This document shows, piece after piece, positions 39,596 through 39,769 of a stretch of DNA of 64,000 nt. Position 1 is the stretch's first letter. Each line of letters opens with the position of its first letter. The notes under the pieces are model-generated. The model made no database searches. It was not told where the DNA came from and saw only the letters and a program-made list of their open reading frames with translations. Location: assembly GCF_053078305.1 (NCBI RefSeq), contig NZ_CP166879.1; one strand, given 5' to 3'. The position numbers were made by a program, and so were the translations under genes.

Positions 39596-39769
39596 TTAGC
39601 AGGCGCGTATCCTCGCAGATCTACGTTCACGATGCGACAATTTAATCGGTTCTTCATCGGGTGGTGGGTCAGGCATGGGTTGCGGGCGAGGGATCGGATC
39701 GGGCACTGGAACAGGATCGCCAGGAATCGGTTCAGGGACAGGAATTTGCAAATAAATAAGTGTCGTCAT
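39596..39769 (-). CDS. Candidate small proline-rich protein, 57 aa, immediately upstream of dbpA (hypothetical)
   Basis: ATG at 39767-39769 preceded by GGAGGGAAATA; translation MTTLIYLQIPVPEPIPGDPVPVPDPIPRPQPMPDPPPDEEPIKLSHRERRSARIRAC; below the ORF-track cutoff. Confidence 0.4.
   Translation of the reverse strand: MTTLIYLQIPVPEPIPGDPVPVPDPIPRPQPMPDPPPDEEPIKLSHRERRSARIRAC

Follow-up and report, generated by a model that had tools for sequence, protein, structure and literature searches.

The window analysed here is a single stretch of 64,000 nucleotides from contig NZ_CP166879.1, in which a minus-strand open reading frame lies between the gene of the small RNA FnrS and the gene of the RNA helicase DbpA. 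The features of the locus are given below in 5' to 3' order on the minus strand, each with the evidence for it in brackets.

39827..39948, minus strand: fnrS sRNA gene with its intrinsic terminator (Rfam RF01796, terminator hairpin, K-12 b4699)
39801..39807, minus strand: CTACCCT heptamer, conserved, 3' of the FnrS terminator and 5' of the ynaL Shine-Dalgarno sequence, possible -10 of a ynaL/dbpA promoter (conservation)
39774..39779, minus strand: Shine-Dalgarno sequence GGAGGG, 4 nt 5' of the ynaL ATG (sequence, conservation)
39596..39769, minus strand: ynaL coding sequence, 57 codons plus TAA (ORF listing, RefSeq and K-12 annotation, PF23677, SPA tag)
39647..39718, minus strand: proline-rich core, codons 18-41, DPVPVPDPIPRPQPMPDPPPDEEP (purifying selection on the peptide)
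39656..39670, minus strand: DPPPD motif, codons 34-38, candidate EF-P-dependent pause site (conservation)
39632..39646, minus strand: Block 1, ATTAAATTGTCGCAT, codons 42-46, containing TTGTCG (frozen nucleotides)
39623..39631, minus strand: free 9-nt spacer, codons 47-49 (variable sequence, fixed length)
39602..39622, minus strand: Block 2, AGATCTGCGAGGATACGCGCC, codons 50-56 encoding RSARIRA, probable extended -10 (TGcGAGGAT) and GC-rich discriminator of a dbpA promoter or leader (frozen nucleotides)
39567..39595, minus strand: ynaL-dbpA spacer of 29 nt with a weak dbpA ribosome-binding site, GAGAA (sequence)
38193..39566, minus strand: dbpA, ATP-dependent RNA helicase DbpA, GTG start (ORF listing, annotation, 80 orthologous loci)

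The ynaL ORF opens with ATG and closes with TAA, and its sequence is MTTLIYLQIPVPEPIPGDPVPVPDPIPRPQPMPDPPPDEEPIKLSHRERRSARIRAC. The FnrS match to RF01796 covers 39831-39948 with 134.8 bits, and its terminator hairpin at 39835-39854 is followed by a T-run. On the other side, the dbpA GTG at 39566 is separated by 29 nt from the ynaL stop codon. An initial annotation of this DNA had given the coordinates, strand, 57-codon length, GGAGGG motif, distance of 29 nt to the dbpA GTG, PxP repeats and basic C terminus of the ORF in agreement with the sequence, whereas three of its details required correction. YnaL contains 16 prolines (28%) instead of about 20, the Shine-Dalgarno spacer is 4 nt (AAAT) instead of 5 nt, and the ATG lies 57 nt past the T-run and not 50 nt downstream of the terminator. 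The gap is the same in K-12, where fnrS ends at 1409250 and ynaL starts at 1409308.

The ORF at 39596-39769 is ynaL, a catalogued small-protein gene of Escherichia coli, and not a new gene. In the K-12 MG1655 annotation it is b4743 (YP_009518775.1), in RefSeq E. coli genomes it is WP_001296046.1, "proline-rich small protein YnaL", and residues 1-57 match model positions 1-57 of the Pfam family PF23677, "Protein YnaL-like", with an E-value of 2.2e-40 and 136.8 bits. Its earlier description as unannotated was thus wrong, and the finding is a rediscovery of a gene that K-12, RefSeq and Pfam have listed since about 2018-2019. Both NZ_CP010137 and NC_000913.3 annotate ynaL at the matching position in the order fnrS-ynaL-dbpA. 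The gene in the window differs from that of K-12 by a single synonymous base, the protein and the locus being the same. A total of 164 YnaL homologues were found in many enterobacterial genera, and among the homologue matches listed 120 of 120 carried PF23677.

The 57-residue sequence is also identical to that listed by VanOrsdel et al. 2018 (PMC6001520), who detected YnaL by immunoblot as a chromosomally SPA-tagged protein and reported ynaL as positive in tetracycline-inhibited ribosome profiling. With the SPA tag the native stop codon is lost, and the tagged peptide may be more stable than untagged YnaL. That study is the only one in the accessible literature that concerns YnaL, and no function of the protein has been reported there. 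The small proteins of the set (PMC6001520) share with YnaL a common route of discovery, namely a short ORF, a good ribosome-binding site, an SPA tag, a profiling signal and a possible operon with a neighbour, but many of them are hydrophobic or membrane peptides, whereas YnaL is acidic, rich in proline and rod-like, ends in a basic tail and has no helix in its predicted structure.

The conservation of the locus was assessed at 80 dbpA loci, each from a different species of Enterobacteriaceae. In 68 of them ynaL lies directly 5' of dbpA, and a frame-blind search recovered the Shine-Dalgarno sequence and ATG in frame in 67 of these 68 loci; counted by species, 63 of 66 possess an SD-like motif with an in-frame ATG. 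The ynaL frame is open in 66/66 species, while each antisense frame is interrupted in some. Ten length classes of the ORF occur and every difference between them is a multiple of three; frame-breaking indels had been named in advance as evidence against a gene, and the pattern found favours one. A bare ORF of 57 codons would be unremarkable, and it is the maintenance of frame, Shine-Dalgarno sequence and peptide across 66-68 species that identifies ynaL as a real gene. Its translation starts at the ATG at 39769 behind GGAGGG.

ynaL belongs to the Escherichia-Salmonella-Citrobacter-Enterobacter-Klebsiella-Kosakonia part of the Enterobacteriaceae, and across this whole clade it stays beside dbpA. 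In five Kluyvera-type loci the ORF body has been lost while dbpA and Blocks 1 and 2 are kept, and in seven further genera dbpA is present with neither ynaL nor fnrS upstream. Evidently, dbpA does not require ynaL. The ynaL stop lies 14-30 nt from the dbpA GTG in 51 species, and 12 species have a gap of 57-63 nt. The dbpA GTG is preceded by CGAGA in all loci, and the remaining spacer varies in sequence and length. Upstream of ynaL, the CTACCCT heptamer is retained by almost every FnrS-linked locus, Kluyvera among them; it received no call in the promoter scan.

Within the ORF, three segments evolve in different ways. The N terminus evolves freely. The core, a 24-residue acidic segment DPxPxPDPIPRPQPMPDPPPDEEP, is selected as a peptide. 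Its entropy over 66 species amounts to 0.21, 0.14 and 1.29 bits at the first, second and third codon positions, respectively, and codons 18-41 have a dS of 1.26, at which synonymous change is saturated, and a dN of 0.084. The resulting dN/dS of 0.067 compares with 0.042 for dbpA itself, whereas the two shifted sense frames of the same segment yield 2.9 and 7.5. Nearly every proline position of the core uses all four proline codons. The initial annotation had left open that the ORF could encode a genuine small protein and had proposed an analysis of conservation and synonymous substitution; the substitution pattern of the core, the open frame in all species, the tagged product and the profiling signal together support this suggestion. 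The conservation of the DPPPD motif is high but not complete: Asp-34, Pro-35 and Pro-37 are invariant, residue 36 is proline in 63 of 66 species and serine in three, and PPP occurs in 64 of 68 loci, with DPSPD in E. albertii and two Citrobacter species and DPPQ at one locus.

As a general property that does not derive from ynaL data, motifs of the DPPPD type pause ribosomes when EF-P is lacking. Because YnaL combines DPPPD with many XPX motifs, its synthesis is probably EF-P-dependent. No ynaL entry was found in the profiling supplements searched, and the EfpL Ribo-seq tables list the PPI motif of dbpA but not ynaL.

An AlphaFold2 model of YnaL alone lacked secondary structure (pTM 0.23), its pLDDT being about 90 at residues 21-40, and the core is accordingly predicted to form an extended polyproline-type rod. 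A search of the Protein Data Bank with the YnaL profile found no relative. The odds are even or slightly better that the selected product acts in trans as an unstructured small protein of polyproline-II type. A conserved peptide with a free N terminus would also be seen if YnaL were a nascent regulatory peptide that acts in cis, and the dN/dS of the core is thus compatible with either mode of action. As a weaker claim based on guilt by association, YnaL may have a role in the DbpA/large-subunit pathway, given that its gene has stayed linked to dbpA. A model of a YnaL-(GGGGS)6-DbpA fusion computed with 22 genome-paired sequences was poor (mean pLDDT 51.8, 35-45 for the YnaL segment) and is uninformative on an interaction.

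The last approximately 45 nt of ynaL are constrained as nucleotides and not as codons. In Block 1 the third-position entropy is 0.12 bits and dS is 0.053, with TCG fixed in 66/66 species. In Block 2 the values are 0.07 bits and 0.005, and its rare codons AGA, AGG and ATA do not vary. The fixed codons of the tail thus include six-fold degenerate ones. Between the blocks, codons 47-49 vary at all three positions (1.1-1.5 bits), giving 47 distinct spacer sequences of invariant length. The two blocks form a bipartite element, (T/A)TGTCG-N20-GAGGAT-ACGCGCC, in which Block 2 is located exactly 20 nt from (T/A)TGTCG in 73/73 loci, and this element persists whether it is translated or not. Twelve species have an in-frame stop within the spacer (L022, L030, L031, L039, L041, L046, L049, L051, L056, L057, L058 and L062), and Block 2 is untranslated in 17 loci yet present. 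Block 2 occurs only once in the 64-kb window, even when three mismatches are allowed, and was on that ground rejected as a repeated regulatory motif. Comparison of Block 2 by eye with FnrS, with 23S rRNA near hairpin 92 and with σE, σ28, σ32 and MerR-type promoters gave nothing convincing.

In alignment, Block 1 falls on the A/T-rich and -35 region (AAATGACC) of the promoter that precedes dbpA in genera without ynaL. At the homologous site, Cedecea and Dryocola have a promoter call, ATGACC-17-TAGAAT, with an upstream TG (TGcTAGAAT) and 9/12 matches. The corresponding candidate -10 of E. coli, TGcGAGGAT, has A at position 2, T at position 6 and TGn ahead of it, and is invariant in 73 loci. The E. 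coli hexamers, such as GAGGAT, are degenerate. The distance of 20 nt from TTGTCG to GAGGAT in 73/73 loci lies outside the 16-18 nt expected between a -35 and a -10, a spacing that was found only in the genera without ynaL. A strict σ70 scan of the E. coli interval 39450-40050 called no promoter, so that a strict σ70 promoter in E. coli was dropped as a candidate and the promoter reading depends on the invariant spacing and on the homologous site of Cedecea and Dryocola. Judged from sequence, the odds are about even that the tail element comprises the -35, extended -10 and discriminator, or the immediate leader, of a dbpA promoter older than ynaL. The ynaL ORF would then read through a pre-existing dbpA promoter and the basic tail RSARIRAC would largely fall out as a by-product. 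That Blocks 1 and 2 persist untranslated and match the dbpA promoter in genera without ynaL suggests that the basic tail is largely dictated by this dbpA cis-element.

The best explanation of the whole, to which we assign a probability of roughly 0.9, is therefore a real and known ynaL gene between fnrS and dbpA with a peptide-selected core and a nucleotide-constrained tail. The comparative results place the selected part of YnaL in the acidic core and not in the basic tail, the latter apparently being fixed by a nucleotide element of dbpA with which it overlaps. The two constraints are separable by mutation, which makes for a clean genetic design, and the tail is a reminder that a neighbouring regulatory site can, as a by-product, conserve the amino acids with which a small ORF ends.

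An alternative to a trans-acting product is that ynaL serves mainly as a cis-acting leader, in which ribosomes would slow at DPPPD and XPX motifs and the rate of their clearance would set dbpA expression. Clearance would depend on EF-P, proline supply and the performance of the peptidyl transferase, and could act through termination-reinitiation, through shielding of the transcript from Rho or through disruption of a helix that Block 1 (GUCGCA) forms with the dbpA start (UGUGAC). The co-oriented position immediately 5' of dbpA, the GTG start and weak Shine-Dalgarno sequence of dbpA, and the near-constant PPP with its invariant neighbours are all consistent with such a leader, and a variable N terminus followed by about 30 conserved C-proximal residues is the pattern of arrest peptides. 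In synthetic reporters, polyproline stalls in an upstream ORF reduced downstream expression via Rho or intrinsic termination when EF-P was absent (PMC5021804); with EF-P present, however, even PPPPPP changed the reporter less than 2-fold (PMC5021804). The motif itself is not universal, as shown by DPSPD in three species, and a distance to dbpA that ranges over 14-63 nt, together with the early stop in 12 species, argues against a precise coupling geometry. Moreover, tagged YnaL accumulates (PMC6001520).

The Kluyvera-type loci also speak against the leader, because they keep dbpA and both blocks with the ORF body deleted, so that Blocks 1 and 2 work without ynaL translation. Together with the seven genera that have dbpA alone, these loci show no dependence of dbpA on the leader, on evidence that is comparative and not genetic. 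RNAalifold applied to 63 sequences predicted a single invariant helix of 6 bp, GUCGCA/UGUGAC; the complementarity is present in 63/63 sequences, but the helix is worth only -3.7 kcal/mol and lacks covariation. The E. coli leader fold has a z-score of -0.3 against shuffled sequences. By these two approaches no conserved RNA switch structure was found in the ynaL-dbpA leader, and no terminator was found between the two genes. An RNA switch was accordingly rejected as the main cause of the frozen tail and kept as a minor possibility. In summary of both sides, a mainly cis-acting ynaL appears unlikely, an obligatory leader role for dbpA is the less likely reading, and the proposal of the initial annotation that a proline-stalling leader tunes dbpA is weakly supported.

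DbpA is a 23S-rRNA helicase that remodels the rRNA around hairpin 92, the A-loop. Distinctly speculative is the idea that YnaL couples the making of proline bonds to the maturation of the peptidyl-transferase centre, either with DPPPD/XPX as a sensor that would adjust DbpA synthesis or with the released rod binding immature 50S or DbpA as a cofactor, or else that ynaL arose de novo through an older dbpA promoter. If true, a de novo origin would make ynaL a datable gene overprinted on a promoter.

According to a further explanation, the conservation reflects only overlapping nucleotide signals, such as a dbpA promoter, a UTR or an FnrS-associated element, and the ORF is incidental. The 3' 45 nt are indeed nucleotide-constrained and the ORF body is dispensable in Kluyvera, but the core behaves in the opposite way, with saturated third positions and fixed first and second positions, and with proline encoded by any of its four codons. 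The retained Shine-Dalgarno sequence and ATG, the restriction of indels to threes and the detected product (PMC6001520) point in the same direction. For codons 18-41 this explanation is already contradicted, and for the ORF as a whole it is highly improbable. Least credible of all is a real gene on the plus strand (the 78-aa ORF at 39578-39814 or a Gly/Ser-rich 26-aa ORF at 39675-39755), a candidate rejected by dN/dS and stop codons: the low dN/dS of 0.10 in antisense frame 1 automatically mirrors ynaL because the wobble positions are shared, that frame has stops in 7/66 species, the 78-aa frame, which does exist and had already been dismissed in the initial annotation, has a dN/dS of 1.59 and stops in 8/66, and it was the ynaL frame that carried the published tag (PMC6001520).

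With respect to known systems, the gene resembles proline-codon leader ORFs and EF-P-dependent polyproline regulation in that a short ORF with consecutive proline codons lies directly 5' of a gene. The principle that stalling in such upstream ORFs alters downstream expression is established with synthetic PPPPPP reporters (PMC5021804). Unlike these leaders, ynaL showed no conserved switch structure, keeps 24 residues as a peptide, yields a product that accumulates and lacks a universal PPP. Natural examples of polyproline regulation are mgtP and mgtL in the Salmonella mgt leaders and the polyproline motif of CadC. Leaders of the mgt type are very short and act via defined alternative RNA hairpins. 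SecM, TnaC and MifM are nascent-chain arrest peptides, with which YnaL shares a variable N terminus, a conserved C-proximal segment of about exit-tunnel length and a position just 5' of a possible target. It differs from them in that nucleotide constraint accounts for its conserved C-terminal tail, which 12 species lack, and in that no stem sequestering the ribosome-binding site shows covariation.

Matches to other protein families were compositional. Membership in the TonB family was rejected (NF008084, 20.8 bits against a cutoff of 315; Pfam TonB_N, E = 0.75), as was membership in a defence system or adhesin family, for which there was no PADLOC hit and the NCBIfam matches were far under their cutoffs. 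YnaL is nevertheless similar to the proline-rich spacer of TonB and to proline-rich antimicrobial peptides in its alternating X-Pro repeats and its predicted extended form. Proline-rich antimicrobial peptides are rich in arginine, whereas the YnaL core is acidic.

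The minus-strand ORF at 39596-39769 is the known gene ynaL; the initial annotation made a real observation but mislabelled the ORF as unannotated. A megablast search found the interval in 5,392 of 5,426 complete E. coli genomes, with the matches annotated as 'ynaL: proline-rich small protein YnaL' or 'protein YnaL', and one matching E. coli record places WP_001296046.1 between zntB and dbpA. In K-12 MG1655, ynaL is b4743 (YP_009518775.1; 1409308-1409481), flanked by fnrS (b4699) upstream and dbpA (b1343) downstream, and the copy in the window differs from it by a single synonymous base in codon 48. 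The product matches a dedicated Pfam family, PF23677 'Protein YnaL-like', end to end (E = 2.2e-40). VanOrsdel et al. 2018 (PMC6001520) list 'ynaL, fnrS/dbpA, 1409308-1409481, 57 aa', with a sequence identical to the ORF product, as one of 36 short ORFs with products detected on immunoblots after chromosomal SPA tagging. A literature search returned no other paper on ynaL and none on the function of YnaL. The locus is laid out as follows.

Features of the zntB-dbpA region
40044-41027, minus strand, zntB (ORF listing)
39831-39948, minus strand, fnrS sRNA gene (Rfam RF01796, 134.8 bits)
39835-39854, FnrS terminator hairpin with eight consecutive T after it (terminator scan)
39774-39779, minus strand, GGAGGG, Shine-Dalgarno (SD) sequence of ynaL, 4-nt spacer to the ATG
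39596-39769, minus strand, ynaL, 57 codons, ATG start, TAA stop
38193-39566, minus strand, dbpA, GTG start

The ynaL TAA lies 29 nt from the dbpA GTG. The product, MTTLIYLQIPVPEPIPGDPVPVPDPIPRPQPMPDPPPDEEPIKLSHRERRSARIRAC, has an acidic core and a basic tail, and all of its prolines fall within residues 9-41. The earlier description of the ORF holds in its essentials, and three small figures need correction: 16 prolines were counted instead of about 20, the SD spacer measures 4 nt instead of 5, and the distance from the FnrS terminator is 57 nt instead of 50. About 20 nt past the terminator T-run, the motif CTACCCT (39801-39807, minus strand) is kept in nearly all FnrS-linked loci, including those of Kluyvera without ynaL. 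Judged by its sequence, it could be a candidate weak -10 (TACCCT) for transcription of ynaL/dbpA, paired with a TTTGCC located 17 nt upstream; the promoter scanner did not call this site.

Because the comparative sample was anchored on DbpA and not on YnaL, sampling was independent of the presence of ynaL. It comprised 80 dbpA loci, one per species, with DbpA identities of 81-99%, and 68 of these loci have a YnaL-type ORF as the immediate upstream neighbour of dbpA. A protein search yielded 164 YnaL homologues, all with PF23677, from Escherichia, Salmonella, Citrobacter, Enterobacter, Klebsiella, Raoultella, Kosakonia, Leclercia, Lelliottia and other genera. In the protein alignment the N-terminus is free and DPxPxPDPIPRPQPMPDPPPDEEPIK(L/M)SH..RSARIRAC is nearly invariant. 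Codon statistics were calculated over a block of 40 codons that align without gaps in 66 species. The core, codons 18-41 (39647-39718), showed entropies of 0.21/0.14/1.29 bits at codon positions 1/2/3, a dS of 1.26 and a dN of 0.084, giving a dN/dS of 0.067; dbpA codons 2-121 gave 0.042, and shifting the core into the other two sense frames gave 2.9 and 7.5. Nearly every proline position draws on all four proline codons. The antisense frame of the 78-aa plus-strand ORF had a dN/dS of 1.59 and stops in 8/66 species; the antisense frame sharing its wobble positions with ynaL had stops in 7/66, and its dN/dS of 0.10 is a trivial mirror of ynaL. The two checks proposed earlier, on frame conservation and on indel length, both favour a gene: the ynaL frame is open in 66/66 species, a frame-blind search placed an SD and ATG in the frame of the core at 67 of the 68 loci, and ten different ATG-to-core distances occur, all of them multiples of three within 90-144 nt. 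Length also varies within species: E. coli E69 (L003, about 2370-2420) has lost 11 codons between repeated PVP(E/D)PIP units, and the Salmonella proteins P0053 and P0103 show a 10-codon duplication and a 5-codon deletion, which suggests repeat slippage with the frame always preserved.

What is added here is a two-layer anatomy of ynaL: a core selected as peptide, and a bipartite element that is frozen at the nucleotide level and shared with dbpA. Within the final ~45 nt of ynaL (39602-39646, minus strand), a freely varying 9-mer of constant length lies between two frozen blocks, ATTAAATTGTCGCAT and AGATCTGCGAGGATACGCGCC. Essentially no synonymous variation occurs in block 1, codons 42-46 (ATT AAA T/ATG TCG CAT; third-position entropy 0.12 bits, dS 0.053), or in block 2, codons 50-56 (AGA TCT GCG AGG ATA CGC GCC; 0.07 bits, dS 0.005), and TCG, TCT, AGG and CGC are each fixed in 66/66 species. 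Codons 50-54 (39596-39622, minus strand) include three of the rarest codons of E. coli, AGA, AGG and ATA, fixed in 60-66 of 66 species. The cluster is accounted for by the nucleotide element that overlaps it, but it would also slow ribosomes just ahead of the ynaL stop. Codons 47-49, between the blocks, are free to vary at all three positions, and in 12 species (L022, L030, L031, L039, L041, L046, L049, L051, L056, L057, L058 and L062) they contain a stop codon, so that YnaL ends in ...PIK(L/M)S(H)R without the basic tail. The 'RSARIRAC' DNA thus lies downstream of the ORF in these species and is conserved all the same, and the tail is dispensable for whatever the YnaL peptide does. Five Kluyvera-type loci (L070, L072, L073, L075 and L078; Kluyvera and a related MAG; about 2380-2500) lack the ynaL SD and the proline-rich body and retain fnrS, CTACCCT and both blocks, an arrangement that either arose by secondary deletion or predates ynaL. 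A 14-codon remnant ORF, (M/L)SH...RSARIRAC, is present there without an SD. Across 73 loci (T/A)TGTCG and GAGGAT are always exactly 20 nt apart, even though the intervening 9-mer has 47 different sequences, and the 17 loci with the stretch untranslated keep this spacing. On sequence grounds, this fixed spacing with a free spacer has the look of a bipartite protein-binding DNA site and not of an RNA helix.

In seven loci (Cedecea, Dryocola, Atlantibacter and Siccibacter) another gene is located upstream of dbpA and fnrS is absent; the aligned position reads AAATGACC-N17-TGCTAG(A/C)AT-(G/A)CGCGCC. For Cedecea and Dryocola a consensus scanner called ATGACC-17-TAGAAT with an upstream TG, 46 nt ahead of the dbpA GTG, where about 0.2-0.3 calls are expected by chance. 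The E. coli-type TTGTCG-N20-TGcGAGGAT-ACGCGCC is the homologue of this predicted extended -10 promoter. The TG, positions 2 (A) and 6 (T) of the -10 hexamer and a GC-rich discriminator are all retained, but the hexamers are weaker, the -35-like hexamer is 20 nt away, and a strict promoter scan called nothing in E. coli. GC-rich discriminators are typical of growth-rate-controlled promoters, e.g. rrnB P1. The frozen element occurs once within the 64-kb window. We see about an even chance that blocks 1 and 2 would form the core of a dbpA promoter or its immediate leader, older than ynaL. As the ynaL ORF runs through this element, the sequence of the basic YnaL tail would largely follow from it, and the amino acid conservation of the tail is probably a by-product.

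Folding of the E. coli leader against shuffles gave no support for RNA structure (z = -0.3). RNAalifold on 63 sequences returned as sole pairing an invariant 6 bp between GUCGCA of block 1 and UGUGAC at the dbpA start, with no covariation. The corresponding 6-nt complementarity, GTCGCA (39632-39637) with TGTGAC (39562-39567), both on the minus strand, is found in all 63 aligned sequences; because it is invariant, covariation speaks neither for nor against the pairing, which could sequester the dbpA GTG.

The preferred reading, with a probability of roughly 0.5-0.6, is that YnaL is a trans-acting small protein, possibly tied by association to DbpA and 50S biogenesis. The initial annotation had also proposed that the proline-rich tract stalls ribosomes and tunes dbpA expression; that ynaL is mainly such a cis-acting leader seems unlikely, although both could be true together. 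Selection on the peptide across 24 residues is as compatible with a trans-acting product as with a nascent-chain effector and so does not decide between them. The tripeptides combined in the DPPPD motif of YnaL rank with the strongest EF-P-dependent pauses. A leader of this kind has a real published precedent, in which polyproline stalls in an upstream ORF lower downstream expression via Rho or an intrinsic terminator without EF-P, the effect being less than 2-fold with EF-P present (PMC5021804); EF-P and EfpL are also active at XPX motifs (PMC11611912), which are abundant in YnaL. However, E. albertii and two Citrobacter species have PSP where the others have PPP, the distance from the ynaL stop to dbpA varies from 14 to 63 nt, dbpA has its own weak but conserved ribosome-binding site, Kluyvera does without the ynaL ORF, no switch structure is conserved, and tagged YnaL accumulates, all of which argues against an obligatory leader. 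More doubtful still is a role for YnaL as an EF-P or peptidyl-transferase sensor, or as a cofactor, tied to the helicase maturing the peptidyl-transferase centre.

AlphaFold2 predicted YnaL without secondary structure (pTM 0.23) and with high local confidence restricted to residues 21-40, a prediction that fits a stiff polyproline-II segment. Searches for relatives of YnaL in the PDB and among defence-system models found none, and membership of TonB or adhesin families was rejected, as the matches were compositional only. A crude co-fold of YnaL joined through a linker to DbpA, based on 22 genome-paired sequences, gave a poor model.

The neighbourhood of ynaL holds a second tiny annotated ORF, the 15-codon 'protein YnaN' of RefSeq (41041-41088, minus strand), which ends 13 nt ahead of the zntB start at 41027. 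In E. coli STEC388 (L082), where the ynaL annotation is 12 nt longer (186 nt), an IS1A element (658-1355) lies between fnrS and ynaL, a natural separation of ynaL-dbpA from any fnrS read-through.
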